A stretch of 64,000 nucleotides of DNA, taken from assembly GCA_963722655.1 (NCBI GenBank), contig CAVRNT010000001.1:98612-162611 (forward strand). Reading direction: 5' to 3'. The notes beneath the pieces are model-generated. The model was not told where the DNA came from. It saw nothing but the letters and a program-made list of their open reading frames with translations, and did no database searches. The DNA is from an uncultured bacterium (GTDB lineage: Bacteria; Patescibacteriota; Minisyncoccia; UBA6257; GWB1-50-10). This document shows positions 3,946 to 32,293 of the stretch, in pieces (position 1 is the first letter of the stretch; each line of letters begins with the position of its first letter). The translations under genes and the position numbers were made by a program.

Positions 3946-5049
3946 CTAGCCCTTGATGGGCATCGCGACGTAGGTGGTGGTTTTGTCGCCTTCGCCGCTC
4001 AAGACGATTGGTTTTTCCGATGAGTTGAAGCCTAGGACGACGTTCCCGGTCCTTTGGATCTTCAGCCCGTCCAAGATGTAGCGCCAATTGAAGACGATTG
4101 AGAACTTGTCGCCGGAAAGCTTCACCGGAACTTTGTAGTTGTTCTCGCCGACCGAGGCGTCCGCCGCGTAGATCTCGAGGAACTTTTTATTCTCTCCGAT
4201 CCGGATTGTGATGTCATTGCTTTTACCCGAGAAGGTGCTCGCCAGTTTCACCGCGTTCAATATCTCCTGCTTGTCCAGAACGACCTTCGTCTTGCAGTCC
4301 TTCGGCACCACCGCCTTATAGTCCGGGAATTTTCCGTCGATGAGACGGGAGACCAAACGCCTGTTTTGGTCCTTGAACATCGCTTGGTTCTGATCGAGGA
4401 ACACTTCAATGGGTTCGCTGTCGCCGAAAACCCTCGGTATCTCACTCGCGGTCTTGAGGGGGAGGATAACAGAAAAATCGGAGCGTTTCCCCTCAATCTT
4501 CTCGCCGCTCAAGGTCCTTTCCGCCAAACGAAAACCGTCGGTCGCGACGAACTCGATCTCTTCGCCGTCGAACGCGATGAGCACGCCGCTGATCTCCGGC
4601 CGGATTTCCGAATACTGGGCGGAGGTGATCACGCTCCCAATCGCCTCCCGGAGCTCCTTGGCGTCGATCTTGAACGGCTCCCCGCCGTCGACGGCGGGAA
4701 TAATCGGGAAGTCGCCGGCATCCTGACCCTGGATTACCGCCTCGTAGTTGTCGGTGGTGACGGTGATTTTACCGCCCTTCTCCTCGATCGCGACCCGTTC
4801 GGCGGCGAGATTTCTCAAGATCGAGCTGAAGACCGAGAACGGTGCCGCCACCGCGCCGGATTCTATAATTTTTCCCGGGACGACGCACTCGACCGCCAAC
4901 TCGAGGTTCGTCGAGGTGAGAATGATCCTTCCGCCGTCGGTCTTGAAGAGGAAACTTTTAAGGATCGGCAAATTGGAATTTTCCCCGACGCCGCGCTCAA
5001 TAACCCCAAGGGCCTCTATTAAGTTCGTTCTTAGTATTATTAACTTCAT
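3946..5049 (-). CDS. dnaN: DNA polymerase III beta subunit (sliding clamp)
   Basis: 367 aa, MKLIILRTNLIEALGVIERGVGENSNLPILKSFLF...; lies immediately downstream of dnaA in the canonical dnaA-dnaN order. Confidence 0.85.
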   Translation of the reverse strand: MKLIILRTNLIEALGVIERGVGENSNLPILKSFLFKTDGGRIILTSTNLELAVECVVPGKIIESGAVAAPFSVFSSILRNLAAERVAIEEKGGKITVTTDNYEAVIQGQDAGDFPIIPAVDGGEPFKIDAKELREAIGSVITSAQYSEIRPEISGVLIAFDGEEIEFVATDGFRLAERTLSGEKIEGKRSDFSVILPLKTASEIPRVFGDSEPIEVFLDQNQAMFKDQNRRLVSRLIDGKFPDYKAVVPKDCKTKVVLDKQEILNAVKLASTFSGKSNDITIRIGENKKFLEIYAADASVGENNYKVPVKLSGDKFSIVFNWRYILDGLKIQRTGNVVLGFNSSEKPIVLSGEGDKTTTYVAMPIKG

Positions 5050-5212
5050 AGTAGTCGTAGTAGATGAGCCGTTTATGTGGAAAAGTCTTCTTCTTCTGAT
5101 TTTTATTGAGGTTTCGAGTGTTTTATATTTTGAAAACTGTTGATAATCGGTTGCGCTGTGTTGATGCTTTTACGCCACCTCCCCGAAAGCTCAGTTTTTC
5201 AAAACAGGACAT

Positions 5213-6595
5213 TCACATCTTATACAGCCGCTCCTTGATCAAAAGTATCTTCTGGTTCAACCCTGGATTTTGGCTCACCTCCCTGGTTATTTTATCGCAG
5301 GCGTGGATGGCAGTCGTGTGATCCCGTTTCCCCAACCGATCACCGATGTGAGGATAGGACATTTTAAGTATCTCGCGCATCAAATACATCGATATTTGAC
5401 GCGGCTCCACCACTTCTTGTTTGCGGCTCCTCTGGGTCATATCACCGACCGGCACCTCGAAGAATTCCGCAACCGTCTTTACGATGTCGTTCGGGGTGAT
5501 GTTCTTTGGTGTCACCTGGACGGCTTCGTTGATTATTTCATCCAACTTCTTGCCGTCCAAGCCACCCTTTTTATACTGGCTGTAGAAGGCCACCTTGTTC
5601 AAGACCCCCTCGAGCTCTCGGATGTTCTTTTGAACCCGGGCGGCGATCTGTTCCATCACCTTGTCCTCCACCACAACGCCCATCCCCTTGGATTTAGTCT
5701 TGAGTATTGCGAGGCGCATCTCGTAATCCGGATAGCCGATGTCGATGATCATCCCTCCTTCAAACCTCGACCGGAGACGCTCCTCGAGGGTGGGAATTGC
5801 GGAAGGCGGCCGGTCCGAGGAGATGATGATCTGTTTGTTGTTTTCGTAAAGAGTATTGAAGGTGTAGAAAAACTCCTGTTCGGTGGCGGTCTTGCCGCCG
5901 ATGAACTGGATGTCGTCGACGATGAGGACATCGATGTCGCGGTATTTTTTCTTCACGTCGTCCATCCGCTTGTTCCGGACCGCCCAAACGACGTCGTTGA
6001 TGAACTTCTCCGATGAGACGTAAAGGACCGCCACTTGATTCTTGTAGGTGTTCAAGATCTCGTTGCCGGTCGCTTGAATGATGTGGGTTTTACCGAGTCC
6101 GACGCCGCCGTAGAAAAAGAGCGGGTTGTACTTCTTCCCGACGTTCCTCACGACCGCCTGGGCGGCGGCGTAAGCCAGCTCGTTCGAGGAACCGACGATG
6201 AACGTCTTGAAGTCGTAGCGGGGGTTCAGGTTGGTCTTCGGGTCCGTCTTGAGCTCGATGAGCTCGGCTTGCGGCGCGACCACCTCTTGGGCGTCGCTCC
6301 GCGGTCTCTTGTTGGGGGCGCTCGCGGCCGGATTCGGATTGTTCTGGTTCACCACGACGTAGTCGATGTTCTTGATCGATCCGTCGAGGTTGCGCAGCGA
6401 CCCGAGGATGATCTTGTGGTACCGGCTCTTTACCCACTCTTTGGCGAAGTTGTTCGGCAAACCCACGAGCGCCACCCCCTCCCTGTCGTCCTTCCCGAGG
6501 AACTGGCTGTTCTTGAGCCAAGTTAAAAAATTCGGTCGGGAAATCTGAAGCTCGATATCTCCGAGAACTGTTTGCCAAACGTCTTTAGGATTCAT
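5213..6595 (-). CDS. dnaA: Chromosomal replication initiator DnaA
   Basis: 460 aa. Walker A GGVGLGKTHI, AAA+ region (IDVLIVDDIQF) and a C-terminal DnaA-box-binding HTH (SMYLMREILKMSYPHIGDRLGKRDHTTAIHAC). Confidence 0.9.
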   Translation of the reverse strand: MNPKDVWQTVLGDIELQISRPNFLTWLKNSQFLGKDDREGVALVGLPNNFAKEWVKSRYHKIILGSLRNLDGSIKNIDYVVVNQNNPNPAASAPNKRPRSDAQEVVAPQAELIELKTDPKTNLNPRYDFKTFIVGSSNELAYAAAQAVVRNVGKKYNPLFFYGGVGLGKTHIIQATGNEILNTYKNQVAVLYVSSEKFINDVVWAVRNKRMDDVKKKYRDIDVLIVDDIQFIGGKTATEQEFFYTFNTLYENNKQIIISSDRPPSAIPTLEERLRSRFEGGMIIDIGYPDYEMRLAILKTKSKGMGVVVEDKVMEQIAARVQKNIRELEGVLNKVAFYSQYKKGGLDGKKLDEIINEAVQVTPKNITPNDIVKTVAEFFEVPVGDMTQRSRKQEVVEPRQISMYLMREILKMSYPHIGDRLGKRDHTTAIHACDKITREVSQNPGLNQKILLIKERLYKM

Positions 6596-6835
6596 CCTGT
6601 TATTAGAAGCTTGGTTTTGGGAAAACTTCGACTGGTTTCAATAAATCGATTTGGAAAATTGAGTTCAAGTTTATTTTTACCAAAGCCTCTAACAGGATTC
6701 ATGATCTTTTAACGGTTTGCACTTCAGGTTCATCATAGTGATATTTTGGGACGGCGCAACGTTGCGATAAGACCCTAACTGTGCTTTAATTGTGCATTAT
6801 CTGTTGATAGTCGCAACGGGGTATAATCAGAAAAG
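6596..6835. promoter_or_regulatory. Candidate oriC/divergent promoter region between dnaA and rpmH
   Basis: AT-rich 240-nt intergenic region with DnaA-box-like 9-mers (TGTTGATAG, a 1-2 mismatch variant of TGTGGATAA) and TATAAT at 6822-6827 just upstream of rpmH. Confidence 0.3.
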
Positions 6836-6970
6836 ATGAGCGTCACTTATCAGCCGAAAAAGAGAAAGCGAGCGCGGACCCACGGGTTCATTCGCCGGAA
6901 GGGGTCGGCGACCGGCCGCGGCGTCCTTAAGGCTCGCCGCCGCAAGGGCCGCCGCCGGCTCACGGTTTAA
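6836..6970 (+). CDS. rpmH: 50S ribosomal protein L34
   Basis: 44-aa basic peptide [44 protein letters not shown]; not in the ORF track (<60 aa) and found by hand upstream of rnpA. Confidence 0.8.
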
Positions 6971-6972
6971 GC

Positions 6973-7230
6973 GTGGAACTCTCGCTTAAATCGAGGGCTT
7001 GCCGGAGCGGCCGGCCGAAGGTCTTGGTGGTGGTCGGAAAGGCGACCCTTAAAAAGGCCTCGGCGCGCAATCTCCTCAAAAGGCGCCTCCGGGCGCTCCT
7101 CGCGCGGCAGGCGCTCGCGAACCGGACGGACCTGACTATCTACATCAAAGGGAGAGCGGGAAAGATCGGCTTCAGCGAGCTTAAAGAGAGATTGGCTGGA
7201 GCATTTAAAAAACATGGGAGCGATTTTTGA
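6973..7230 (+). CDS. rnpA: RNase P protein component
   Basis: Small basic protein in the rpmH-rnpA-yidC context; KVLVVVGKATLKKASARNLLKRRLRAL resembles RnpA. May use an alternative start. Confidence 0.55.
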   Translation: MELSLKSRACRSGRPKVLVVVGKATLKKASARNLLKRRLRALLARQALANRTDLTIYIKGRAGKIGFSELKERLAGAFKKHGSDF

Positions 7231-7873
7231 CGCCATAATCTATCAACCGATCCTCTGGGTATTGGTCTTTTTGTATCAAAACGCCTCTTTCGGCGACCTC
7301 GGAGTCGCGATTATCCTCCTTACGATAATTGTCCGGTTGATTCTCCTTCCGCTTTTCTACAAGGGGGCCAAAGACCAGACTGTCCTCCAGCGACTTCAGC
7401 CACACATCAAGAAGATCCAGTTGGACCACAAGGACGACAAGGAGAAACAGGCGCGGGCGATGATGGAACTCTATAAGACGAACAAGGTCAATCCGTTCTC
7501 CGGTTTTCTCCTCCTTCTTCTCCAGCTTCCCATCTTCATAGCCCTCTTCGAGATATTCACCAAAGGGATAACGTCGGTCGGTTTCGCTAACCCAACCCTC
7601 TTCGGGATGGACTTGGCGGCGAAGAGTATCGTCCTCGCGGCGGTCGCGGCCGCCCTCCAGTACCTTCAGGCGCGTCTTACGATGCCGACGAAGAGCATGG
7701 AGACCGCCCAGCGGATGATGGTGTTTTTGGGACCGGCAGTGACGATTATTGTCCTTTGGAACCTCCCGGCGGCCCTCAGCCTGTACTGGAGCGTCTCAAA
7801 CTTGTTTTCCTTGGGCCAGCAGGTCTATATTAATAAAAAACTCGCTCCCCTGCCGGACGAGCCGAAGAAATAA
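7214..7873 (+). CDS. yidC: Membrane protein insertase YidC (short form)
   Basis: 219 aa, polytopic, YidC/Oxa1 core; position follows rnpA. Confidence 0.8.
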   Translation: MGAIFDAIIYQPILWVLVFLYQNASFGDLGVAIILLTIIVRLILLPLFYKGAKDQTVLQRLQPHIKKIQLDHKDDKEKQARAMMELYKTNKVNPFSGFLLLLLQLPIFIALFEIFTKGITSVGFANPTLFGMDLAAKSIVLAAVAAALQYLQARLTMPTKSMETAQRMMVFLGPAVTIIVLWNLPAALSLYWSVSNLFSLGQQVYINKKLAPLPDEPKK

Positions 7874-7878
7874 CGACA

Positions 7879-8307
7879 ATGGACCTCAAAGAACAGGTAC
7901 AATCACTGGTTGAGAAAATGGGCTTCCCGGAAGCCCAAATTTCCGTCGATGACGAACACCACAAGGTCTCGATCGTTATTGATGACGAAGCGGTGCGGGC
8001 CCAACTCCCCAATCTCCTGCCGGCCCTGGAGCATCTCGTGAACCTCATCCTCCGCAAAGTGAAATCCCCGGCCTACGTCGTGGATTTGAATTACTACCGC
8101 CGCGAGCGCGAGCGGCTCATCGTCGAGCTAGCGAAGGCCGCCGCGAAGAAGGCGGCAATGACGAAGGGCGAAGTGGCCCTGCCCCCGATGAACGCCTACG
8201 AAAGGCGTTTGGTCCACGTGGAGATATCGACGAACCCCGACCTTAAGACCGAGAGCGTCGGCGCCGGCAAGGACCGGCACATCGTCATCCAGCCGACGAA
8301 CCTTTAA
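7879..8307 (+). CDS. Jag/KhpB-like R3H-domain RNA-binding protein
   Basis: 142 aa with C-terminal R3H-like region (YERRLVHVEIS...DRHIVIQ); follows yidC as is typical. Confidence 0.7.
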   Translation: MDLKEQVQSLVEKMGFPEAQISVDDEHHKVSIVIDDEAVRAQLPNLLPALEHLVNLILRKVKSPAYVVDLNYYRRERERLIVELAKAAAKKAAMTKGEVALPPMNAYERRLVHVEISTNPDLKTESVGAGKDRHIVIQPTNL

Positions 8308-9518
8308 TCCCCCGTTACGGGGATACTCCCACTTGCATTAGGCGTGGCGGGCAGCGGCAGCGGATTATTTCCGATATTGAGTGCATAGAGGTAGTTATCG
8401 AATCGGTTAATGAAATAAAGATTACCGCCGGCGATAGCCGGTTTTCCCGCGTCTAGCGGACCGCTGTTTGCGGCGAGCGGCAGAAGAGTGGAGACACCAC
8501 TTACGGTATCAACGCCGTAAAGGACGTCGTTGGAGTAGACCTTCCTCTCGAGATAATCGTCGGGCAGTGAGGCGCTCTTGAAATTGCTATTCGTCGGAAC
8601 GAAGCAATAAACGATCGAGCCGGAGTTCAGCGAGCACTTTGAGGGAAGAGTGATGAAAGGTATCGGCGCGACGTTCTGCAGGGTTTGACTCTTGAGGACC
8701 TGGAACCCGCTCGCCGAGGAATAGGTTATGAGAGTTGAACCATCATTCGTGAGTTCGGTGATTAGGCCGTTTAGCGGACCCATTAAGAGATTGATCGCGG
8801 ATGTTTTAATGTTAAAACTCCAAATCCTTCCACCATAGTTCGCGTTCCCCTTCTCCTTGATGAGGAGCGTGCTTGGCGGAACGAAATCAAATGAGGTGTC
8901 CAGTAATCGGAGGTCGTTCACAAGTACCCTTGGTTTCGGGGGCGTTTTTGTGAGGTCGAGCGTCACCAAATTGACATTAGACCCGTTCTGCTCGGTCGCC
9001 ACGAGCGTGTCGGAGTCCGCTCCCCAGGTCGCGTTCAAGATGTTAGCTGGCAGGGGTCGCCAAACCTGGTCAATGGCGTCGTAAATTCCCCAACTCGGCA
9101 GACGCGGGTCGCCGAAGGCGGCCAGGATGGATTTCCCATCCGGACTTTGTTTGATGAAGTTCACGGCGCTCACACCCTGCTGGGTGATCTGGGGATTCTT
9201 CTCTCCCGACTCGGCCTGCCAGACGATGCCACCTTGGTCCAAATAGAAGACCTCGCCCGTTCCTGGGTCGGTCCAGAAGAACGAAACCGGTTTATCCGAT
9301 ACCCTAATTAGAGCTCCGATAGTCGTCGTTGCTCCCACCGAGGGAATGCCACCGCCGCTAGTACTGGTACTGGTCAATCCGGCGAGGGGGAAATAGGGTG
9401 CGCTCGTCGGGCTGACCGGAGTCGGTTTCGTCGTAGTGCTCGTCCAGATAAAGTAAATTAAGAGACCAACAATTATAATCGCACTGACGACAATAATTAA
9501 TTTTACATAAGGTTTCAT
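8304..9518 (-). CDS. Secreted/membrane-anchored hypothetical protein, beta-propeller-like (first gene boundary of T4SS-like operon)
   Basis: 404 aa. N-terminal TM helix (LIIVVSAIIIVGLLIYFIW), then a Thr/Ser-rich linker, then PD40/TolB-like repeat character. Confidence 0.4.
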   Translation of the reverse strand: MKPYVKLIIVVSAIIIVGLLIYFIWTSTTTKPTPVSPTSAPYFPLAGLTSTSTSGGGIPSVGATTTIGALIRVSDKPVSFFWTDPGTGEVFYLDQGGIVWQAESGEKNPQITQQGVSAVNFIKQSPDGKSILAAFGDPRLPSWGIYDAIDQVWRPLPANILNATWGADSDTLVATEQNGSNVNLVTLDLTKTPPKPRVLVNDLRLLDTSFDFVPPSTLLIKEKGNANYGGRIWSFNIKTSAINLLMGPLNGLITELTNDGSTLITYSSASGFQVLKSQTLQNVAPIPFITLPSKCSLNSGSIVYCFVPTNSNFKSASLPDDYLERKVYSNDVLYGVDTVSGVSTLLPLAANSGPLDAGKPAIAGGNLYFINRFDNYLYALNIGNNPLPLPATPNASGSIPVTGD

Positions 9519-9533
9519 GGCGATGATACGTCG

Positions 9534-10937
9534 TTAATTTTGACAACCCTGGCCATCCGTCGGGTGCTTTCCTCCACTGCACAGCTCCACGTGCAAATTA
9601 CTGCCCGTTGTGGTTTCAAAAGTGGATCCGCCGCACTGGCTGTATTCATTAAGGACGCCTAAACCCTGATTGAAGAAACTTTGCATGACGTTATTGAGGT
9701 AACCGCAATCAAGCGGCGTTTTCGTTAAAACAACATCAGCGCAGGTTCCGATGTTGTGGCAGAGGGAAGCATGAACGACGGTCGGCGGCCAGGCCTCACT
9801 GATTTGCCAGCCGTTATACGGAGACCTGTAAGCTGCTTGCATTTTTATGACTAAACCAGAATTTAACAAACAAAGGCTATCATTGCATGCTCTAAGAGGT
9901 CCCTTGTTCGGCAATCCAGTGCTGGATAGATCCAAACATTGCAGGGCAGAGCAACCGCATTGGCTGTATATCGGATTACAGAAAGCCTTTGGGTCAGAGG
10001 ACGGAGCAATAGCACCCATGGATTGGTTGTGGGGGTAGCAGAGTTCCAGGGACGGGTTTAATCCAATCATACTCGTGCCCGAACTATTCATTTCCTGATA
10101 AGCGTAGATTAAACATCTCGCTCCAACAGCGACAGCACCGCTCGTCGTGGCCGACCCCGGGAAATAGGGGTACTGCCAAATTTCAGATCCGGGATTGATA
10201 ACCACGGTTCCCGACTTGAAATTGAGTAAGTTTACGATATTACCAAGTCCCAAGCTATAGTAATCTTTGTCACTGGTAAGGGTGAGCGTCGAACGCGTAT
10301 AAAATACTCGATTTTGGCAATTCGCCGTGGCCGGGTCGTCTGCACTAGATCCGGAATCGTAGTTACCACCCCCCAGGTAAGTGGTGGGATTGGCCATGCT
10401 GGCATAAGTGGCGTCGGCTGAGAGTGTAGAAGAGTTGTTGGGGTCGGCAGTTTGTGCGTTGAGGGGGATACATTCCGTGATTGGGACAGACACGCCGGAG
10501 CTTGTCGCGACTTGATTGAACCCCACTCCAGGGAGGGTGAGGGTAGTGATTTGCGGGTTGATGGTGTTCAGGATCAAGTAAGAGGCGAGGAGCAACGCCA
10601 CACCGTAGATGGCGGAAAGGATGATATCCCGTGCATCCTCCTGCCCTCCGGCGTTCCCGGCGGAGATCGTGTATTTGACCCCGCCGTAGACGATCATTAG
10701 AAGCGCTAGAATGCCGGAGAGGCCAAGGGCGATTTGGTAGAACGAGTTCAAAAATGTGCCGATGGGATTTGAAGAAGAAGCTGCGTCGGATAATTGTACG
10801 CAATTGCCGAAGCTAGAAGGACACGGGAAATTGAGATTCACGAGCTGGCTGTTGGGTCCGGCGTGGACGAAAGCCACGGGTATAACGAGCGTTAGTACGG
10901 CCAGTGAGCCTATCGCCATTATCTTGTATTTATTCAT
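9534..10937 (-). CDS. Pilin-like (VirB2/TrbC-type) N-terminal domain fused to large Cys-rich extracellular domain
   Basis: 467 aa. Signal peptide, then helix-AGNAGGQEDARD-helix (LGLSGILALLMIVYGGVKYTISAGNAGGQEDARDIILSAIYGVALLLASYLILNTI), the same architecture as the pilin paralogs at 31.5-33.1 kb. The C-terminal ~330 aa carry many Cys. Confidence 0.5.
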   Translation of the reverse strand: MNKYKIMAIGSLAVLTLVIPVAFVHAGPNSQLVNLNFPCPSSFGNCVQLSDAASSSNPIGTFLNSFYQIALGLSGILALLMIVYGGVKYTISAGNAGGQEDARDIILSAIYGVALLLASYLILNTINPQITTLTLPGVGFNQVATSSGVSVPITECIPLNAQTADPNNSSTLSADATYASMANPTTYLGGGNYDSGSSADDPATANCQNRVFYTRSTLTLTSDKDYYSLGLGNIVNLLNFKSGTVVINPGSEIWQYPYFPGSATTSGAVAVGARCLIYAYQEMNSSGTSMIGLNPSLELCYPHNQSMGAIAPSSDPKAFCNPIYSQCGCSALQCLDLSSTGLPNKGPLRACNDSLCLLNSGLVIKMQAAYRSPYNGWQISEAWPPTVVHASLCHNIGTCADVVLTKTPLDCGYLNNVMQSFFNQGLGVLNEYSQCGGSTFETTTGSNLHVELCSGGKHPTDGQGCQN

Positions 10938-10944
10938 ATGCCGT

Positions 10945-11646
10945 TTATTGGATATTGAAAATGCTTATCGTTTTGCTGAACTCCAGCGGATTTGCCGTGT
11001 TCTGCGTCGTGAGCGTCACCGGCAGCATCTGCTGGCTGGGCGATTGGGGCGAACCGATCTGAAGCGTGAGCTGGTTTTGGTTGCTCGTCGTGTTTTGGCC
11101 GTTCGTCTGCCAGGTAAACTGCAGCTGATCCAGGGAATCGACGTTGAAGAAATAAGGCCAAGCCGTCAGGGTGACCGTCCCGCCTGCGGGAACGGTCTTG
11201 CCGATTGAAGGATAATCGATGATCGCGAATGGCGCCGAGGCGAGGATGGAAACGGCGTTTTGGAATTGGGCGCCACCCGCCGCTTGGACTTGGACGCGGA
11301 CGGTGATGAGTCCGGACGGGTCGGGGTTGGCCGTGAAGGAGATGCTCTTTAGCCCCGTGCCGCTCTGGACCAGCTGGTCGTTCACGAACCAGCCGATTTG
11401 GGCGCCGCTCAAGTTGATGAGCTTGTTCCCGGCGATCTCCTCGACCGCAGCCATCACCTGCGTCCCGGGCGTGATCATCGCCTTTCCCGGAAAGTCGGCC
11501 GGGAAGTAATTATTGGCCTCCCAGGTGATGACGAGCGGATTGATCGTTTGAGCGTTGGCCGGCCCGACGGAAGCGCCGAAGAGCAGTGTCGCGGTGAGAG
11601 CCCCTAAAAAGGCGCACAGAATTATTTTTTGGAAAATATTTTTCAT
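10945..11646 (-). CDS. Secreted hypothetical protein
   Basis: 233 aa with signal peptide (MKNIFQKIILCAFLGALTATLLFGASVGPANA). Confidence 0.4.
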   Translation of the reverse strand: MKNIFQKIILCAFLGALTATLLFGASVGPANAQTINPLVITWEANNYFPADFPGKAMITPGTQVMAAVEEIAGNKLINLSGAQIGWFVNDQLVQSGTGLKSISFTANPDPSGLITVRVQVQAAGGAQFQNAVSILASAPFAIIDYPSIGKTVPAGGTVTLTAWPYFFNVDSLDQLQFTWQTNGQNTTSNQNQLTLQIGSPQSPSQQMLPVTLTTQNTANPLEFSKTISIFNIQ

Positions 11647-11981
11647 TTCGTTACCGGTATTTTTGCCACGACAGCGCTGGCCGCTTTGGGGTGATTGTGA
11701 AGATAGACCTTGATGGCAAAGGTCAGAACCGGTGCGGGGATGAAGGGGATCGCGTCGCCGACGACTTGAACGAGCAGAGAAACGGGCTTACTGGCCGTCG
11801 TATCCCCCTTTTCTTTGAAGAAGAACCAGGTGCCGCCAGTGCAGGCGAAGTTGATGATTGGGGCGATCACGAGACCTATCGCCAGCCCGTCCAGTATGTC
11901 GTTCAGGGTATAAAGGCCCAAAAGGAAGATGACCCAAATCACTACTTCCGCCTCGTTGATTTTTTTGTAATCCCGCGTCAT
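11643..11981 (-). CDS. Small membrane protein
   Basis: 112 aa, 2-3 predicted TM helices; overlaps neighbours by 4 nt at both ends. Confidence 0.4.
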   Translation of the reverse strand: MTRDYKKINEAEVVIWVIFLLGLYTLNDILDGLAIGLVIAPIINFACTGGTWFFFKEKGDTTASKPVSLLVQVVGDAIPFIPAPVLTFAIKVYLHNHPKAASAVVAKIPVTK

Positions 11982-13738
11982 TTTTCTTGTAATCCTTTTA
12001 TCTCGAGCATCTGCTCCGGATTCGTCGTGATGATCTGGTCCTCGGTGTAGGAGGCGATGATTTTGATCGCAACGTGCTTCAGCCCCGCGAAGAAGAGTCC
12101 CTCGCCGACCGCGGCCTCCAAAAGGAAGGCCTTCTCGCCCTCGGTGAGGCCGAAGGCCTTGGCGACGGCCTCGATGCTCGTCGGGGACTGTTTTAATAGT
12201 AGCTGAAGCGATGAGTTGGAGATGATCGGCGCGCCGTATTCCGACTTAATGAAGTCGTCCACGTCCTGGGTGATGGTCGTGACGCCGAGGAAGTACTTGC
12301 GGGCGCGCTTCACGAGCCCGAAGAGGAAGGAAGCACTGTCCTTGTATTTCATCATCCACCAGGCCTCGTCGATCACGAGCATCCGCTGTTTCAAAGACGA
12401 CCGGATGAGGTTCCAGACGAAGTTCAATACGATGTACATCGCGATCGGCCGGAGCTCTTCCTCGAGATCGCGGATTGAGAAGACGATGAGGCGGTTCTTG
12501 ATATCCACGTTCGTTGGGGCGTTCGTGAAGCCGGAGTAGGAGCCGTTCACGTATTTATCCAAACGCGCCGCCATTCCCCGGCCGCCCTCGCTGCTTTGGA
12601 GGACGGTCTGAAGATCGCCGAGGAGGGGCGGATTCAGTTCTTTGAGCGAACCGAAGTTATCGGCCGTGATGTCGCGGGAGGCGTAGGTCTCGGTGATCGC
12701 CCGGTCGAGCATCGCCTCCTCCTCCGGCGTGATCTTGCCGAGCATCAGCTTCACTAATCCGGTGAGGTTCAGGATATGCGACTTAAAGACGTCGGCCGGC
12801 TCCTCTCCCTCGGGGATGATCGGGATGTCGAACGGGTTCACGTGGCTTTCGGAAGTGAGGGAGATCTTGAAATAGCTGCCGCCGATCGCGTTCGCGAGGT
12901 TCTGGTACTCGTTCTCCGGATCGATGACGAGGACGTCCGTGCCCATCATCATCGAGCGGAGTATTTGGAGCTTGGTGGCGTAGGACTTGCCCGAACCGGA
13001 TTTGGCAAAGACAACCATATTGGCGTTCTCGAGCGAGAACCGGTCGAAGATGATGAGCCCGTTGTTATTCAAATTAATGCCGTACATCGTGCCAGTCTCA
13101 GAAGAGAGGTCCGGCGAGACGAAGGGGAAAAGCGACGAGGCCGGACCGGTGTTTAGGGGCGTCCGCAAGGCGAGTTTGTCCTCCCCGAGGGGCAGAACGG
13201 AGGTCAATCCTTCGGTTTGGCGGAAAAGCGCCGGTTTGGCGTAGACCAGCTTGCTTTCCAGGGCGTTCACGACAGTCTCCTCAAGAGTCTTGAGGTCCTC
13301 TTGGGTCGAGGCGTAGAGGGTGATGTAAACCCCGACTTCGAAAAGCCGCTCCCGCGCCTGCTGAAGGGAGTCCCGGAGGGTCTCTACGTCCTCGTGGGCG
13401 GTCTCAAGGACCGGGTCGCGGACGATGCCCTTCGCCTCCTTCTCATTCATCTCGGCCTCGATCTGGGCCACCTTCTTCCGCAGGTTCCGAAGGGCGAGCG
13501 CCGTGTCCATCGGATGCATGAAGATCGAGATGTCGATCATCGCTGGCAAATTTATAATGGACGAGAACCAACCGCTCGTGACGAATCGCGGATAGGTGAA
13601 GATGAAGATTGTCTTCGTGAAGTAATCGCCGATCTTCAAATAGTTGCTCCCCACCTCTAATCCGGCGGGGGCGATGATGTTCGGCAGGTCCTCTTCGCCC
13701 GGCTTGTAGGCCTTGGGTATTTTGATCTCGTCGCTCAT
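11978..13738 (-). CDS. VirB4/TrbE/CagE-family type IV secretion ATPase (C-terminal ATPase part)
   Basis: 586 aa. Walker A VVFAKSGSGKSYATK, Walker B LVIDEAWWMM and VirB4-like overall organisation. Confidence 0.75.
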   Translation of the reverse strand: MSDEIKIPKAYKPGEEDLPNIIAPAGLEVGSNYLKIGDYFTKTIFIFTYPRFVTSGWFSSIINLPAMIDISIFMHPMDTALALRNLRKKVAQIEAEMNEKEAKGIVRDPVLETAHEDVETLRDSLQQARERLFEVGVYITLYASTQEDLKTLEETVVNALESKLVYAKPALFRQTEGLTSVLPLGEDKLALRTPLNTGPASSLFPFVSPDLSSETGTMYGINLNNNGLIIFDRFSLENANMVVFAKSGSGKSYATKLQILRSMMMGTDVLVIDPENEYQNLANAIGGSYFKISLTSESHVNPFDIPIIPEGEEPADVFKSHILNLTGLVKLMLGKITPEEEAMLDRAITETYASRDITADNFGSLKELNPPLLGDLQTVLQSSEGGRGMAARLDKYVNGSYSGFTNAPTNVDIKNRLIVFSIRDLEEELRPIAMYIVLNFVWNLIRSSLKQRMLVIDEAWWMMKYKDSASFLFGLVKRARKYFLGVTTITQDVDDFIKSEYGAPIISNSSLQLLLKQSPTSIEAVAKAFGLTEGEKAFLLEAAVGEGLFFAGLKHVAIKIIASYTEDQIITTNPEQMLEIKGLQEK

Positions 13739-14385
13739 TGGGTTATCACCTCTTTCTTTTCGACCAGCTGCGGGTTGTAGAGATTGTAGAAAAGTTCCAC
13801 GAGGTCATCGTCCTCCAAAGGCACTGCCCGGAGGCCGATCTGATTCAAGCCGGTGATGACCTGCTCGGTGCGGCGGCGGAGCTGTTCCAAGTTCTCTTGG
13901 AGCGAGGCCTCTTCCGCGGCCTTCGCGGCCGATTTACCTCCCGAAAAGAGCGAGAGCAGCCCCTTGGAGCCGCCGCCGGGGACGACCACCGGGTCGTAAG
14001 GCACAACGGCGAAGAAAGTCTTCGTAATAATGGCGTTCTGTTCAACGAAGTTCCGGATGAAGTTGACATACTCGTCAATCTGGATCTTCAAGAGCTCGTT
14101 CGTTTCCTCGGCCTTGCGCGCCTCCATCAGCTTCAGGTATTTTTCCACGTTCACCTTCCGCGAGTGGATGAAGAACTGAACGGCGAAATCCAGTGCGTTC
14201 AGGAAATTTTGGAAGCCGCCGAGGATAAGGTTCTGCTCCTCCTCGGATTTGAGCTCGAAGTTGACCCCGCCGACGATGAGGACCTGCCGGAGGGATTTGT
14301 TCTTGAGGTAGACGACGCCGTCCTTGATGGATTTCACCTCCACGAACTCCTGCGACGGTTTGGTTGGCTGTTGTTTCTCCGCCAT
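13735..14385 (-). CDS. VirB4 N-terminal-domain-like protein (split VirB4?)
   Basis: 216 aa. VEVKSIKDGVVYLKNKSLRQVLIVGGVNFELKSEEEQNLILGGFQNFLNALDFAVQFFIH resembles the VirB4/TraC N-domain. Overlaps the ATPase ORF by 4 nt; 216 + 586 aa is about full-length VirB4. Confidence 0.45.
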   Translation of the reverse strand: MAEKQQPTKPSQEFVEVKSIKDGVVYLKNKSLRQVLIVGGVNFELKSEEEQNLILGGFQNFLNALDFAVQFFIHSRKVNVEKYLKLMEARKAEETNELLKIQIDEYVNFIRNFVEQNAIITKTFFAVVPYDPVVVPGGGSKGLLSLFSGGKSAAKAAEEASLQENLEQLRRRTEQVITGLNQIGLRAVPLEDDDLVELFYNLYNPQLVEKKEVITQ

Positions 14386-14399
14386 TTTATCTTATTTTA

Positions 14400-14891
14400 T
14401 CAGTAATCTATCCTTTTTGCTTGCTTGCGCTCGCCCGTGAGATAGACGACCGTCTCGTATCCCTGCTCCTCGCCCTTTTGCGCCTTCAGCGCAAAGAACT
14501 TACCGGTCGTGATGTTCAAAGCGACGTTCTTGAGCCGTTCCTCCAGGCCCATCTTGTGCCGGAGGTTCTCGATGTCCGTCAACTTGTTCAGGTCGATCGT
14601 GGTCGTCGGGTTGATCCTTTGCCAGGTGTAGACCCGGGGTTGCCAGAAATAAGTGAGTGCCGAGGTAACAATCTTCGGGAACTCCTGGCCGTTGATCTTC
14701 AAAAAAGCGAAAGCGAGGCCGATCATGCCGACGATCACCGTCACAATGACGGCGAAGAAGAGATTGAAGATTTGGAAGGAGATGTAGCCCAGAAGGGCCG
14801 CCCCGCCCACGTAGAAGAACTGTTGGAGAGTGAGGAAGCCGACGATCTTCGGCTTCTGTTCTATGAATTGTGGAATTTGGAAATTAGCCAT
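14400..14891 (-). CDS. Small two-TM membrane protein, VirB3-like candidate
   Basis: 163 aa with two hydrophobic helices (FFYVGGAALLGYISFQIFNLFFAVIVTVIVGMIGLAFAFL); sits directly upstream of the VirB4 parts. Confidence 0.35.
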   Translation of the reverse strand: MANFQIPQFIEQKPKIVGFLTLQQFFYVGGAALLGYISFQIFNLFFAVIVTVIVGMIGLAFAFLKINGQEFPKIVTSALTYFWQPRVYTWQRINPTTTIDLNKLTDIENLRHKMGLEERLKNVALNITTGKFFALKAQKGEEQGYETVVYLTGERKQAKRIDY

Positions 14892-16305
14892 TGCTCAAGT
14901 CGACGGTGTTGCCTTCGATTTTCGGCTCCGGCTTTTTGATGGCGCCGAGTATCGCCGGCGTTGCCACCCCCGCGGGAGACGTTTGTGGATCGGAGGACGC
15001 GACCATCGGCTTCACCGCGGTCGGCGCCGCGAACGTCTTTTCCGGCATGTTCTCCGCCTTAGGTTTGATGGTCATGGCCGGCTTTCCCATCGTTTCGGAG
15101 AGCGTTCCTGCGGCCGCCGGTATCGGCATTTCTTCCGGAAGCGGTTTTACCTCACCAACGTTCAGAAAAGCTGGTTCCTCCAAGGCACCGAGGGGCGTGC
15201 GGGTCTCGCTATAATGTACGACCCGTTTCTCTTCCGATTTGATCCCCGGTATCTCCAATTTCGCGAAGGCCGACCTCGGTTCCCCGGTCGCCGGTCTCTT
15301 CTTGAGGAAGAATCCACCGAGGGGCGCGGTAACGCTCCGGAAGACGGACTTCTGGGAAGCGATGTTCCCCTCCGGCACAATCTCTTCGTGGAGAATGAAC
15401 GGCGTCTCCGTTTTTTGTTCCTTGAGCGTGACGGACGACGTTTCTACTGGGATCGATTCTTCTTCCTCGGCACCGCCGATGTTCTCCAAAGAAACTACTC
15501 TTTCAGCCGTCGGCTTTATTTCACCCATAGGTTCATAGATGGAACTAATTGAACCGGTCAGACCACCGACGATGCCGGCTTCGATATCGGATGCTATTTC
15601 ATCGCATATCCTTTGGTCGATGCCAAGTTTCTCTTGCAAGGTCTTAAGCAGGTCGTCGGGGTGAACGAAACCTAAGATCACTTGCCCTACCACTGCTGCC
15701 ACTTGACTGGTTTTGTCATCGCTCAGATGGTGGTTAATGCACGTTCTATATGTGGTTTCCGCTCCCTCGTACGAATACATCGCGCGCCGGAGGTTGTCCG
15801 GAATAAAACGGTACCTTTTGAGGGTTTTCTCGAGATTGCTGTCACCGAGGGATTTCGGGTAAAGTCCGATATCCTGGCCGGGTGCCGCGATGACGAAATT
15901 GTAAATTGACTGTCTTTGCGTTTTGAGCCACCCCAACTTGCTGTTGTCCGTTTGACCGGGAATAGATCGCCAGAAAAGCCTTTCGAACCTGTCTTGGGAA
16001 TCCGGCGACAGGTTTTGTAGCACGATGCTAAATGCCTTGCCGTTCGCGCTGTTCAGAACCGCTCGCACGAGCGCCGGCTGGGCGTTCTTCGTCCAATCAT
16101 CATCACTTAGATCGCCCAAGACCATTGGGAGGCCGGAGAAAACGCCCTCCCAATAGACCGCTTCCCAATCCTCTAATGAAAAACCGCTTAGCAAACTCTC
16201 CAAGCCCCGCTCGGCTGCTGTAAACTGTTTCTTTTGGAGTGGTGCCCAAATAGACTCGTCCCAAGTCGGGAGCACACTCAATATTGTTTGAATATCTTCT
16301 TCCAT
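14884..16305 (-). CDS. Hypothetical protein of T4SS-like operon
   Basis: 473 aa with a Pro/Ala/Glu-rich C-terminal half; no recognised motifs. Confidence 0.4.
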   Translation of the reverse strand: MEEDIQTILSVLPTWDESIWAPLQKKQFTAAERGLESLLSGFSLEDWEAVYWEGVFSGLPMVLGDLSDDDWTKNAQPALVRAVLNSANGKAFSIVLQNLSPDSQDRFERLFWRSIPGQTDNSKLGWLKTQRQSIYNFVIAAPGQDIGLYPKSLGDSNLEKTLKRYRFIPDNLRRAMYSYEGAETTYRTCINHHLSDDKTSQVAAVVGQVILGFVHPDDLLKTLQEKLGIDQRICDEIASDIEAGIVGGLTGSISSIYEPMGEIKPTAERVVSLENIGGAEEEESIPVETSSVTLKEQKTETPFILHEEIVPEGNIASQKSVFRSVTAPLGGFFLKKRPATGEPRSAFAKLEIPGIKSEEKRVVHYSETRTPLGALEEPAFLNVGEVKPLPEEMPIPAAAGTLSETMGKPAMTIKPKAENMPEKTFAAPTAVKPMVASSDPQTSPAGVATPAILGAIKKPEPKIEGNTVDLSNG

Positions 16306-16310
16306 AACCG

Positions 16311-18167
16311 TTATTTTTTACCGCCACCCCCTCTGCCACCGCTGGGTGGTTTCGGTGCGCCGCCTTCCTTTTCTTCCCCCCCATCCTCTTCGTTGATCGC
16401 TTTTATCGCCTCCTCGACCTTCTCCGTTTTGCCTGGCGTGGCGAGGTATTCTTTACCGACCTGACCATAAGCCTTGCCAAGTTTTGTATTCTTGAGTTCA
16501 AAGCCGGCATCTTCGAATGTTTTTCGAGCACTCTTTGGTAATTGAGCCATAATATCTTCCATTGCCGCCGCCGCCTTTAGCGCATCATCGACGTTTTTAT
16601 CGATTTTAACCTTGTTCGCCTTCGCCGCAGCCAGCTCTCTCTCTGCGGCGCTAATTTCCTTAATATCTTTGCCTCGCTCGGCGATCCTAAGATTTTTTTG
16701 GGCAGTATCCACGGCATCGCCCGCATCTTCTTGATTTTTAAGTAGGGGATCTACTGCATCTTTCCGTTTCTTCTTCTCCTTCAGAAGGTCGGAAGCAATA
16801 GCCACACGCTCAGCATTGTTGGCATGAGCGTATCGCTGTGCCTTATCTTTTAGATTCTTCGGCAGTTTTTTGGTGGCATCCGCTATTTGTTTTTCAACTT
16901 TGGCTCGCTGCTCGGCCAAAGCATTGCCGGCTAAACGCACCTGTCCGGTGATCGGGGCAGCGATCGGTTTGAGCCACGACGGAAGATTTTGGCCGAATTT
17001 CTGCATTCCGCCGACAATATTGCGGCCCGCCTGAGTGCGGAGAGGTGCCGTCGCCATTCTGGCCGATGCTTTCCCGGCCCATCCCCTAACTTGTTTGCCT
17101 GTGCTTTTAGCGATATTAATCGCCCCCGCCGCGCCCGCGATGCCCATGCTCTTCGCGGCGATGAGTCCGCCGAGAAGGATACCGGCGAGGACCACCATCT
17201 GGGCGCCCTGGCTGAAGGTCGTCTCGAGGACCGAGCCGACGGAGCCACCCGTTGAGATCTGGGCGGAGCCCAAAAATTGGGCGCCGGTCAGGGCCACGTA
17301 GATGAAAAACGAGACGGCCGGAGCGAAGAAGACCCAGTCCAAGAACTTGCTCCACCATTCGTTGAAGAGCTTATTGAGCGGCGGAAAGACCCAGAAGAGC
17401 CAGACTAGAGGCGCGACGATGAGAAGGAAAGAAAGATACACGTAGCGGATGAGGAGCATTAAGGCGAGTGCGATCATCACGAGTGCAGCGATGGCGGTAA
17501 AGGCCGTCGTGAAGATCAGCCCCGCGATGCTCGTGAGGGCCGCCGCCGTCACCCCGCCCGCGGCGCTACCCTGATCCGCCGGGTTCGGCGGTTCCGGGTT
17601 TTCCGGCGGGAGAAGGAGCTTCTGCGGCGCGAAAGCGTTGTCGATCGCCGAGACCATATCGCCACTCATCTTGCCGTTAAGAAAAACGTTCGTGAGGGAG
17701 TTCGAGAAGGTGATGAAGATGCCGGCGATGGTCAAGCTGAAGTTGACGATGATCGCGGCGCCGATGAGCTTCGGCAATAAGCTCTTGGCGCTGAATCTCT
17801 CGTAGCGGACGATGGTTGCGACCGCGACGATGATCATCATGAGGACGAAGCCAAGGTTCGCCACGTCGCGGGCGATCGTCCAGCCGACGCCGACGAGCGC
17901 GTTGTTCTGGTTCAAAATGTCAGCGTTCAAGTGCATCATCAAGTTCACCAAGAAGCCGCCGAGGATGAAGAGCAGTCCGAAGACGAAGTTCAGGATGAAG
18001 GCCAGGATGCGGAAGACCATCGTGGCGACGCCGGCCGGGCTGAGGTCGAGGAGGCCGAAAAGCGCCGCGTGGGTCGTCTGCGGCATCACCAAAAGCGGTA
18101 GGGCGATCAGGGCGCCGATCAGGGCAATCTTCAAAATTCTTGTCACTTGTTGCTTATTTCCTGTCAC
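16311..18167 (-). CDS. Polytopic membrane protein, VirB6/TrbL-like, with C-terminal Lys-rich coiled-coil tail
   Basis: 618 aa; the first ~330 aa have at least 6 TM helices; the C-terminus is charged coiled-coil ending GGRGGGGKK. Confidence 0.5.
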   Translation of the reverse strand: MTGNKQQVTRILKIALIGALIALPLLVMPQTTHAALFGLLDLSPAGVATMVFRILAFILNFVFGLLFILGGFLVNLMMHLNADILNQNNALVGVGWTIARDVANLGFVLMMIIVAVATIVRYERFSAKSLLPKLIGAAIIVNFSLTIAGIFITFSNSLTNVFLNGKMSGDMVSAIDNAFAPQKLLLPPENPEPPNPADQGSAAGGVTAAALTSIAGLIFTTAFTAIAALVMIALALMLLIRYVYLSFLLIVAPLVWLFWVFPPLNKLFNEWWSKFLDWVFFAPAVSFFIYVALTGAQFLGSAQISTGGSVGSVLETTFSQGAQMVVLAGILLGGLIAAKSMGIAGAAGAINIAKSTGKQVRGWAGKASARMATAPLRTQAGRNIVGGMQKFGQNLPSWLKPIAAPITGQVRLAGNALAEQRAKVEKQIADATKKLPKNLKDKAQRYAHANNAERVAIASDLLKEKKKRKDAVDPLLKNQEDAGDAVDTAQKNLRIAERGKDIKEISAAERELAAAKANKVKIDKNVDDALKAAAAMEDIMAQLPKSARKTFEDAGFELKNTKLGKAYGQVGKEYLATPGKTEKVEEAIKAINEEDGGEEKEGGAPKPPSGGRGGGGKK

Positions 18168-18180
18168 TTGTTTAATTTAC

Positions 18181-19776: not shown

Positions 19777-20573
19777 GAAGCCAATGATTGATATTGCGCT
19801 TGCATGGTTTGTTGAACCGTCAAATTCTCATTGAGAATATCGTTGATTTGGTTCAAACCGATAACCGCCTTAGCTGGATCGTTCGCGAGGTCGGCGATGG
19901 CCGAGAAGACAGTTATTTTCTCTTCCCAAAGGTTGATGTTAGAAAGGTGCCAGGCCGCCCAGTTGTTCGGCGCGCGCAAAGCCAAGAGGTCCACGACCTC
20001 CTGGTTTGCGATCGCGATGTACTGGTTTAGGGCTGAAGTGTCGTTGTTGTTAAAAAAGTTCGATACCATCTTGTCCATCGGCGTCTTAAAAGAGCCGAAA
20101 TCCTTTTGGGTGATCGCTCCTACGGCGGCGAGGTATTGGAGCTGGCTCGTTGTCGAAACATCGTCCGATGTCAGAATATCCTCCGGAGCGTAGGTTTTGT
20201 ATTGGAGCTTTTGGTTGATGGCTTGAGAGAGGAGTTGACTCGTCTCGTCCACGGACGGGAAGCTGATAGGGTTGGAGCCGGTCGCACTCGCGCCGGCGAA
20301 GCCGCTGTTCATCTGGAAAACGGTTTGGGCGTAGTTTTGCGTCAAAAGGTCGGTGAGATTATCCGTTACCGCTGCGGTCCCGCTCGCAGTGCCGCCGTTG
20401 TTCATCGGTCCGCGGTTCGCGCTCACGGTGTAGTCCAAGCTGCCGTCTGCACCAGCGCCAGTCTTGGCCGTGACCAAGGGTGCGTTACTTGACGAAGACG
20501 CCCCGATGATGACGAAAAATAGAGCGATTCCGCCCAAAAGAACGATCGCGGCGATGATTTTTCGTCTTTTCAT
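19773..20573 (-). CDS. Membrane-anchored/secreted hypothetical protein
   Basis: 266 aa with N-terminal TM helix (IIAAIVLLGGIALFFVIIGAS); first gene of the operon in transcription order. Confidence 0.4.
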   Translation of the reverse strand: MKRRKIIAAIVLLGGIALFFVIIGASSSSNAPLVTAKTGAGADGSLDYTVSANRGPMNNGGTASGTAAVTDNLTDLLTQNYAQTVFQMNSGFAGASATGSNPISFPSVDETSQLLSQAINQKLQYKTYAPEDILTSDDVSTTSQLQYLAAVGAITQKDFGSFKTPMDKMVSNFFNNNDTSALNQYIAIANQEVVDLLALRAPNNWAAWHLSNINLWEEKITVFSAIADLANDPAKAVIGLNQINDILNENLTVQQTMQAQYQSLAS

Positions 20574-31515: not shown

Positions 31516-31836
31516 TTATTGCGCCTTGATGACGTTGGTGACTATCGTCTGGACGCCGCTTGCTAGAAGCGCCACGGCCGCCGCGATCACGGCGTAGAGG
31601 ATAATCCTCTTCGCTTTGGTAATCTTTTCGTCGTCGCCGCCGGCCGTGACGAAAAGTATCGCCGCCCAGATGAGCATCCCGACCGCGATTATCCAAAAGA
31701 TGCCAAAAAGGTAGTTCACCCAGTTATTGAGGGTGTTTTTAACGTCCGTAATCGATGTAATGGGCGGTGTTTGAGCGGCGGCGATCGCTGGGAGGAAGAA
31801 AACCGTGAGTGCGCCGAGCGTCTTTTTGATCATCAC
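31516..31836 (-). CDS. VirB2/TrbC-like pilin paralog 1
   Basis: 106 aa; signal peptide ending AIAAAQ, then helix-AGGDDEKITKAKR-helix. Confidence 0.55.
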   Translation of the reverse strand: MMIKKTLGALTVFFLPAIAAAQTPPITSITDVKNTLNNWVNYLFGIFWIIAVGMLIWAAILFVTAGGDDEKITKAKRIILYAVIAAAVALLASGVQTIVTNVIKAQ

Positions 31837-32261: not shown

Positions 32262-32293
32262 TTCGGTAGGTTGTGCTTTGTAAGCTCGACCTT

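Follow-up and report, generated by a model that had tools for sequence, protein, structure and literature searches.

A VirB2-like pilin hairpin fused to a predicted Hedgehog/DD-peptidase-type module in a type IV secretion operon of a Patescibacteriota bacterium

In the type IV secretion systems (T4SSs) of monoderm bacteria, wall hydrolases of the VirB1 class, among them PrgK, TraG of pIP501, TcpG and CwlT, are membrane-anchored and encoded near virB4. The domains of this class are of the lytic transglycosylase, lysozyme, CHAP or NlpC/P60 (sometimes M23) type (PMC12102498). A dnaA-proximal, monoderm-type T4SS has been described for Patescibacteria (PMC12102498); in the one species tested, the T4SSs are essential for epibiotic growth (PMC10633639), and what they do is regarded as unknown (PMC11665869). 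A survey recorded VirB2-like pilins near virB4 in more than 1000 assemblies and almost no VirB1, and concluded that a pilus may be built without any wall hydrolase (PMC12102498). Here we analyse a 64,000-nucleotide stretch of contig CAVRNT010000001.1 from an uncultured Patescibacteriota bacterium (hereafter the window), whose T4SS operon matches the type described and contains a gene in which a pilin hairpin is fused to two further extracytoplasmic modules. By profile comparison and structural modelling, the last of these modules is most likely an enzyme, namely a peptidoglycan peptidase.

The fusion gene (9534-10937, minus strand, ATG start) encodes 467 amino acids (aa) and is tightly packed between minus-strand neighbours, one ending at 10945 and the other starting at 9518. 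Hydropathy analysis of the product gave three hydrophobic segments (aa 4-28, 65-91 and 104-127). The first belongs to a signal peptide, for which the AxA rule places leader cleavage probably after A26, between VHA and GP. The other two are the helices of a hairpin, joined by the loop SAGNAGGQEDARD, which reads S-AGNAGGQEDARD in the hydropathy segmentation, and followed by the exit motif LILNTINP. The Pfam model PF18895 (T4SS_pilin) matches aa 56-126 over model positions 2-71 of 71, with 39.4 bits against a cutoff of 26.6 (E 6.6e-10), and the same model scores 34-49 bits on each of four small open reading frames (ORFs) at 31.5-33.1 kb, the sole other pilin-type ORFs within the window. All four paralogs were also matched by a local hidden Markov model (HMM) built from the N-termini of homologous fusions (38-59 bits), BLAST of fusion aa 1-140 against paralog 4 gave 28% identity over 134 aa (E 8e-8), and the inter-helix loops of fusion and paralogs fall in register when aligned. 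An initial annotation, made from the DNA letters alone, had proposed a signal peptide followed by a helix-loop-helix hairpin and an architecture shared with the four small paralogs; both proposals are borne out, and the similarity to the paralogs is significant. The size is not that of a stand-alone small pilin (~100-150 aa), since 340 of the 467 residues lie beyond the hairpin.

The region after the hairpin is rich in cysteine. The protein has 18 Cys, two before the hairpin (C39 and C46) and 16 in aa 136-467, and all 18 fall in segments predicted to be extracytoplasmic from the signal peptide and the two-helix topology. Cys accounts for 4.8% of aa 136-467 compared with 0.30% in 23 other window genes (binomial P ~1e-14), and Ser, Asn and Thr together for 27%. 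The initial annotation was right about the Asn/Ser/Thr-rich stretches and the Cys enrichment, and overestimated the number of Cys after the hairpin, which it put at about 20.

The C-terminal block, aa 316-467, is predicted by sequence profile and model to be a divergent member of the LAS/Hedgehog-DD-peptidase superfamily, outside the Hedgehog (Hh) subgroup. In an alignment of 62 diverse members of the block (A1), E381, H389, H394, D401, E431 and one Cys are invariant, and conservation is at least 90% for H449, C393, C399 and a Pro-Pro pair. Compared with the PDB, the A1 profile matched the N-domains of Sonic, Indian and Desert hedgehog (E ~4e-6 to 1e-3); the top match, 4c4m_A, was discounted because the terminal H-x-H of the family is partly aligned there to a His tag, and the other Hedgehog matches (E ~4e-6), in which no such tag alignment occurs, were relied on. 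In these alignments, E381, H389, H394 and D401 of the family fall on E127, H135, H141 and D148 of Sonic hedgehog (Shh), with H394 and D401 standing at A1 positions 79 and 86, NEY falls on YYE177, and the family pattern aligned to Shh reads T-E-A-w-P-P-t-v-x-H-x-s-x-C-H-x-x-G-t-C-x-D. Of the Shh residues, H141, D148 and H183 are zinc ligands and E177 serves as catalytic base; the Hh/DD-peptidase motif is defined by H-x6-D plus H-x-H (PMC6027127).

Supporting this assignment, the AlphaFold2 (AF2) model of aa 316-467 reached a predicted local distance difference test (pLDDT) score of 86.9 and a predicted template modelling (pTM) score of 0.83, and its Foldseek neighbours in the PDB were almost all LAS proteins: Hedgehog domains, VanXYc, VanY, MepA and the endolysin LysECD7, together with the L-alanoyl-D-glutamate peptidases of phages T5 (EndoT5) and RB49. 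For the Hedgehog domains, Foldseek gave probabilities of 0.97-1.0 and template modelling scores of 0.52-0.55; the E-values of the Foldseek search were modest. Weak matches to PF01085 (HH_signal) were found in 9 of the 62 members (E at least 0.002, none at threshold), and Peptidase_M15_3 matched a single relative (E 0.12). True Hedgehog and bacterial Hedgehog-like proteins have a Ca2+-binding acidic cluster that the block lacks: only the equivalent of Shh E127 (E381) is kept, and 'WPPTV' replaces 'WDEDG'. No lytic transglycosylase or lysozyme Pfam domain, with or without CHAP, was detected in the fusion protein, the candidate catalytic module being of LAS type. The initial annotation had included these last ~150 aa in a suggested tip or adhesin domain; they appear instead to be a Hedgehog/DD-peptidase (LAS) module whose catalytic residues are intact. 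Two highly conserved Cys, a feature that Hedgehog and M15 enzymes do not have, bracket the first predicted zinc ligand (C393-H394-x4-C399-x-D401; window 9735-9761) and could act as a disulfide staple or as extra metal ligands.

Between hairpin and peptidase lies a block of its own, aa ~145-307. Across 32 sequences of this block (alignment A2), C207, Y227, W254, C275, A279 and L293 are invariant and C300 nearly so, and the motifs W-x-YPYF and CLIYAY are characteristic. The AF2 model is all-beta, with a mean pLDDT of 67.5, most core blocks at 72-93 and three dips to 53-67. A fold search of the PDB and BFVD returned no match, and the sequence matched no Pfam family. A pertussis-like toxin B subunit (PltB/ArtB, AB5) was tried as a candidate and rejected, with profile E-values of only 0.05-0.18 and no place among the Foldseek PDB matches. 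The ~330 aa after the hairpin had initially been taken for one adhesin domain. They are indeed a large Cys-rich extracytoplasmic region, made up of two independently occurring modules rather than a single domain, and only the middle one may still prove to be a binding or adhesin domain.

The fusion belongs to a large family. A whole-protein search returned 34 relatives, with BLAST similarity in three blocks (pilin, aa 1-135; middle, aa ~145-307; C-terminal, aa ~316-467), and an exhaustive HMMER search with aa 136-467 gave 247 cluster representatives (50% identity) at E <= 1e-3, the majority of the matches listed covering the C-terminal block only. Sorting 176 retrieved proteins by architecture with local HMMs yielded 120 with pilin and C-terminal block, 13 with pilin, middle and C-terminal blocks as in the window, 20 with pilin and middle block and another C-terminus or none, and 14 with the C-terminal block and no pilin. 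These last are mostly fragments; about five of them are complete proteins of ~175-190 aa with a plain N-terminal anchor. The pilin hairpin is present in 136 of the 150 collected proteins that have the peptidase module, and pilin plus this peptidase is the common architecture of the family. Public annotations of the relatives give PF18895 only, because none of the 62 aligned members reaches the Pfam HH_signal threshold. As judged from its sequences, the family defines a large, unannotated and widespread branch of the Hedgehog/DD-peptidase superfamily.

Homologs in which the pilin and Cys-rich parts are separate had been suggested as a check on the fusion, and they exist as peptidase proteins of ~175-200 aa with a simple N-terminal anchor. 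In L007, L008, L010, L011 and L013, a pilin-peptidase gene is followed directly by such a pilin-less peptidase gene (~175-200 aa, single N-terminal anchor), and in L021 a pilin-domain gene is. The enzyme module occurs fused and separate side by side in these six loci. Other arrangements were also seen. Proteins of ~1100 aa encoded in L047 (7148-10453) and L050 (6992-10321) have an internal pilin hairpin at aa ~770-880, followed by the peptidase at aa ~950-1080, so the hairpin can bear large cargo N-terminally too. PKD domains precede the hairpin in P0025, and P0028 (659 aa) has two hairpins in a single chain.

In the window, the fusion gene sits in a dnaA-proximal monoderm-type T4SS operon, two genes downstream of virB4. 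The minus-strand order is VirB6-like protein, 473-aa protein, PrgI/VirB3, TrsD/TraC-like protein, VirB4, 112-aa protein, 233-aa protein, fusion and 404-aa protein (Table 1). In this region (window 3946-8307 and 8304-20573), the operon abuts jag, yidC, dnaA, dnaN and the gene for a class A penicillin-binding protein (PBP), and, given the jag/yidC/dnaA/dnaN neighbourhood, lies in the replication origin region. Pfam scans recognised no VirB5-like tip protein in this operon. For the 404-aa and 233-aa proteins, candidate roles are those of fusion partner, VirB8-like component and enzyme regulator.

This arrangement recurs elsewhere. A scan of species-representative genomes with two conserved peptidase peptides, taken from an 8-sequence alignment, gave 62 loci, mostly from named Patescibacteria lineages; about 10 have other taxon labels and a handful are labelled 'bacterium'. 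ORF and HMM analysis found the order PrgI, TrsD, VirB4, (112 aa), 233 aa, fusion, 404 aa in 18 of the 62 loci, with VirB4 ending 0.8-3.5 kb upstream of the fusion in these syntenic loci; where at least 6 kb of upstream sequence was available, the VirB4-fusion gene order was present in 13 of 40. In the closest of the named loci, from a Jorgensenbacteria metagenome-assembled genome (MAG), VirB4 is 77% identical to that of the window. Loci without this order usually have the fusion beside further pilin-domain genes. In Southlakia epibionticum, ECOD places a Hedgehog/DD-peptidase domain at aa 951-1105 of SEML1_0007, the protein encoded beside VirB4 (Table S2, PMC10633639), and peptidase and lysozyme homologues immediately downstream of virB4 are reported to be essential in this species (PMC12102498). 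By analogy with the ~1100-aa proteins of L047 and L050, SEML1_0007 may share the hairpin-peptidase cassette. Patescibacteria-type pilin-peptidase genes also occur in MAGs titled 'uncultured Gammaproteobacteria' or 'Bdellovibrionales' (L001, L002, L004, L012, L019, L035, L038, L041 and L052), labels that look unreliable.

Based on these structural predictions and the gene neighbourhood, the reading we favour, and consider reasonably probable, is that the fusion protein is a T4SS-coupled, pilin-anchored peptidoglycan peptidase and a functional analogue of VirB1. Inserted by its Sec signal peptide and VirB2-like hairpin, the protein would sit in the membrane with N- and C-terminus both external. 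Through the hairpin it would share a membrane pool with the free pilins and probably dock at the T4SS, with the disulfide-rich beta module as a putative substrate- or wall-binding spacer. The LAS zinc peptidase, with H394-x6-D401 and H449 as its metal site and E431 as base, would then act on peptidoglycan beside the T4SS, hydrolysing a peptide bond in its stems or cross-links and supplying the wall-cutting activity that VirB1, PrgK or CwlT-type hydrolases supply elsewhere. In this scheme we infer the enzymatic activity, the peptidoglycan substrate, the bond cut and whether the wall is the cell's own or that of a host. Classical VirB1 is mostly missing near Patescibacteria virB4 (PMC12102498), a scarcity for which a wall hydrolase in the form of the fusion would account.

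The C-terminal module is exchanged between close relatives. Three loci (L063, L064 and L065) keep the window's gene order from VirB6 to PBP, with VirB4 ~90% and DnaA ~85% identical to the window. At the position where the window has a fusion protein with the Hedgehog/DD-peptidase module (type A), L063 encodes P0003 with a type C module, L064 encodes P0007 with a type B module, and P0006 of L065 has no C-terminal module, its stop standing right after the middle block and the next gene following 10 nucleotides on. P0008, like P0006, consists of pilin and middle module only. Between the window and these loci, no gene of the operon has diverged more than the fusion, whose 50-57% identity is confined to the N-part; VirB4 stands at ~90% and the 233-aa neighbour at 59-72%. 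The 404-aa downstream gene is kept (65-69%) whatever the C-terminal module of the fusion, and no module-specific immunity gene follows. A second pair, P0002 (type A) and P0005 (type C), shares 90% identity over 322 aa and is nearly identical over the first 188 aa; the break comes just past the motif LCYPH-x-Q, and the remainders are unrelated. The pattern shows very recent cargo exchange at a fixed locus. Type B is recognised by 'NCTSLEG...TGGTE.GH..HG...D...H.H' and type C by 'NSCHYGG...A.D...H.H'; neither has a PDB sequence match, a Pfam family or a significant profile-profile relation to the Hedgehog-like module, and their His/Asp/H-x-H motifs look peptidase-like by resemblance only. In P0096 (505 aa), a type A module end ('GGQHIEF...GHLHLS') is followed by a type C module, placing two peptidase-like modules in tandem.

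Several observations weigh against a pilin-anchored, VirB1-like peptidase. The fusion protein itself has no match at threshold to the Pfam peptidase models (PF01085, Peptidase_M15_x). The HMM alignment to Shh ends before the terminal His, leaving H449 as a presumed equivalent of Shh H183, and the fusion protein has N447-x-H449 where most homologs have H-x-H. Among the close relatives, L063 and L064 carry other C-terminal modules and P0006 and P0008 have none, which implies that not every lineage needs the peptidase to assemble the machine. In about two thirds of the fusion-bearing loci there is no virB4 within 10 kb.

The exchange at a syntenic position is also what recommends a second reading, which we regard as possible yet clearly less probable than the first. 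The T4SS would treat the fusion as a pilin ('armed pilin') and place it at the pilus tip or base, sporadically along the filament or at the channel mouth of the epibiont's machine, and its exchangeable wall-degrading head would open, or drill through, host peptidoglycan at the contact site; module swapping would then track host wall chemistry. This proposal draws on the divergence of the fusion relative to VirB4, on the alternation of types A, B and C or no module at one position, with loss in some relatives, and on the abrupt break between P0002 and P0005. It draws further on the presence of a full pilin module, not a plain anchor, on the many copies that adjoin other pilin genes away from virB4, and on the failure to recognise a VirB5-like tip protein in the operon. 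In the conjugative pili whose structures are solved, the inter-helix loop faces the lumen (PMC11722321), a topology that would turn both termini outward. Against it, an appendage of 330 aa would likely be an obstacle to helical packing, observations of Patescibacteria have so far revealed no T4SS pilus (PMC12857230), modules B and C match no hydrolase family, and the operon position is the usual slot of a self-wall hydrolase. The initial annotation had also suggested a host or partner contact device, which is possible: rapid C-terminal swapping at a syntenic locus speaks for an interaction surface, and the operon position speaks for a VirB1-like hydrolase. Were the pilus to be armed in this way, head swapping would determine host range in a polymorphic manner, much as the cassettes of phage tail fibres or polymorphic toxins do, with a conjugative-type pilin as the mount.

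The interpretation offered by the initial annotation was a tip or adhesin domain carried by a pilin anchor. On this view the Hedgehog-like module would be non-catalytic and act as a ligand or binding domain, and the Cys-rich region would only give a stable binding surface. The middle module, which has no family match, could bind; relatives with pilin and middle module only exist (P0006 and P0008); and animal Hedgehog N-domains do serve as ligands (PMC6027127). However, the LAS catalytic residues are invariant or nearly so in 62 diverse homologs, loss of activity would be expected to relax their conservation, as in Drosophila Hh (PMC6027127), and the structural neighbours include active wall peptidases. 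We consider this interpretation unlikely.

It is similarly improbable that the hairpin is only a carrier that routes a pro-protein to the membrane or the T4SS, with cleavage near 'LILNTINP' freeing the hydrolase in soluble form and perhaps leaving a mature pilin. There is precedent for C-terminal trimming among VirB2-type pilins, with 27 residues lost from TrbC and 5 from TrhA (PMC11722321), and 'LILNTINP' is common to fusions with unrelated cargo; the motif may, however, merely end the second helix, and it falls inside the Pfam match. Finally, a housekeeping DD-carboxypeptidase or endopeptidase for growth of the cell's own wall, lying beside the T4SS by chance, would fit the common role of LAS/M15 enzymes in wall maturation and the PBP1 gene in the same region (1132-3603), but is very improbable, given that the VirB4 gene order recurs in 18 loci from several Patescibacteria lineages, that the T4SS pilin module is fused in 136 of 150 proteins, and that loss or replacement of the module in close relatives would not be tolerable for a housekeeping enzyme.

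Some further features of the window and of related loci are recorded here, and the coordinates of the main features are collected in Table 1. VirB4 is encoded by two overlapping genes, one for a TrsD/TraC-like N-terminal part of 216 aa and the other for a P-loop part of 586 aa, and in L056 the P-loop part is itself split in two ORFs. In the array of free pilins, the pilin at 31902 lies in a 210-aa ORF with a TTG start (31902-32534) that overlaps the next pilin gene; its real start is probably the ATG at 32261 (MTKFEKIV..., 119 aa). Directly downstream of the array, a PMT-family (dolichyl-phosphate-mannose protein mannosyltransferase-like) membrane glycosyltransferase is encoded at 30175-31512 on the minus strand, with the Ser/Thr-rich pilins or the fusion protein as its possible substrates.

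Table 1 Features of the fusion gene, the T4SS operon and the free pilins, in window positions; residue numbers refer to the fusion protein
Feature	Position	Strand	Basis
Signal peptide, aa 1-26 (MNKYKIMAIGSLAVLTLVIPVAFVHA, followed by G)	10860..10937	-	Hydrophobic segment aa 4-28
Extracytoplasmic N-terminal stretch, aa 27-55, with Cys pair C39 + C46 in 'NFPCP...C'	10773..10859	-	Motif kept in homologs
VirB2-like pilin hairpin (PF18895), aa 56-126	10560..10772	-	Pfam, hydropathy, paralog comparison
Middle beta-rich module, aa ~145-307	10017..10505	-	Alignment A2, AF2
Predicted Hedgehog/DD-peptidase (LAS, M15-like) zinc-peptidase module, aa 316-467, with Cys-rich N-terminal part C320-C356	9537..9992	-	Profile, AF2, Foldseek
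Predicted Zn-binding motif H394-x6-D401 (C-H-N-I-G-T-C-A-D), flanked by C393 + C399	9735..9758	-	Invariant H79/D86 of A1; C78/C84 at least 90% conserved
E431 (N-E-Y), putative catalytic base, Shh E177 equivalent	9645..9647	-	Invariant E116 of A1; aligns to YYE of Shh
H449 (N-L-H-V-E), putative third Zn ligand	9591..9593	-	H134 of A1, at least 90% conserved; last beta strand of AF2 model
Four free VirB2-like pilin paralogs	31516-31836, 31902-32261, 32294-32701, 32703-33140	-	PF18895
Polytopic membrane protein, VirB6/TrbL-like	16311..18167	-	Seven hydrophobic stretches, some two-helix wide; L065 ortholog has PF19590 TrbL_3
PrgI (VirB3-like)	14400..14891	-	PF12666, 33.2 bits
TrsD/TraC-like protein, separate VirB4 N-terminal-like part	13735..14385	-	Weak TraC_F_IV; orthologs carry PF26593 TraC-like
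VirB4 ATPase, P-loop part	11978..13738	-	PF19044 TraG P-loop E 9.5e-30, AAA_10, DUF87
112-aa small membrane protein, between virB4 and 233-aa gene	11643..11981	-	Conserved in L022, L063, L065
233-aa secreted protein, upstream partner	10945..11646	-	Homologs directly upstream of fusion in 10 loci, plus L063, L065
404-aa N-terminally anchored protein, downstream partner, weak beta-propeller matches	8304..9518	-	Homologs directly downstream in 13 loci
PBP1 gene (class A PBP)	1132-3603		

Taken singly, pilins of T4SSs, wall hydrolases associated with T4SSs and Hedgehog/DD-peptidases are all known, and a Hedgehog/DD-peptidase beside virB4 is listed for one Saccharibacterium (Table S2, PMC10633639). 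In the literature searched, coverage of which is incomplete, we found no description of the pilin-peptidase fusion, of its predominance in the family or of the swapping of enzyme modules. Such genes have been counted as VirB2 homologues, and we found no mention there of a C-terminal enzyme (PMC10633639, PMC12102498). Our analysis suggests that some of the surveyed 'VirB2 homologues' would be pilin-peptidase fusions, and that the wall hydrolase would be hidden rather than missing. More generally, a conjugative-type pilin fold would serve here as a carrier for extracellular cargo, and the family and its module exchange offer a testable handle on how ultrasmall bacteria deal with the cell wall, be it their own or that of a host.

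The fusion protein resembles the VirB2/TrbC-type pilins, including the PF18895 arrays of Patescibacteria (Wang et al. 2023, PMC10633639; Quinonero-Coronel et al. 2025, PMC12102498), in its signal peptide, its two helices with a short loop and its site near virB4; it differs in having 467 aa, not ~100-150, and two extra extracytoplasmic C-terminal modules. With the Hedgehog N-domain and the bacterial Hh/DD-peptidases (M15A; Roelink 2018, PMC6027127; PMC8052667), it would share the LAS fold, H-x6-D, the Glu corresponding to E177 and, putatively, the C-terminal His; these are its best matches by sequence profile and by fold. Identity to Hedgehog and bacterial Hh is ~13-17%, and the module stays below the Pfam HH_signal and M15 thresholds. 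Compared with Hedgehog, P-P-T replaces the cluster of Shh D130 and D132, ~15 residues are inserted between the Glu and the terminal His, a further conserved pair of Cys surrounds the first motif His, and the whole is fused to a pilin hairpin. SEML1_0007 of S. epibionticum is similar in its C-terminal Hedgehog/DD-peptidase domain and its position beside virB4, but exceeds 1100 aa and has no Pfam pilin listed (Table S2, PMC10633639).

Polymorphic toxin and effector systems offer a parallel to the family as a whole, in that near-identical N-terminal regions of ~320 aa are joined to unrelated, exchangeable C-terminal modules at one locus; unlike those systems, the family has no module-specific immunity gene downstream, and the 404-aa gene there is constant. 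In its proposed function, the fusion protein compares with the VirB1-class hydrolases. Although not homologous to VirB1, it is, like them, membrane-anchored, modular and encoded in a T4SS operon close to virB4; it would differ in coupling a LAS metallopeptidase to a pilin hairpin where the VirB1 class has a plain transmembrane anchor.

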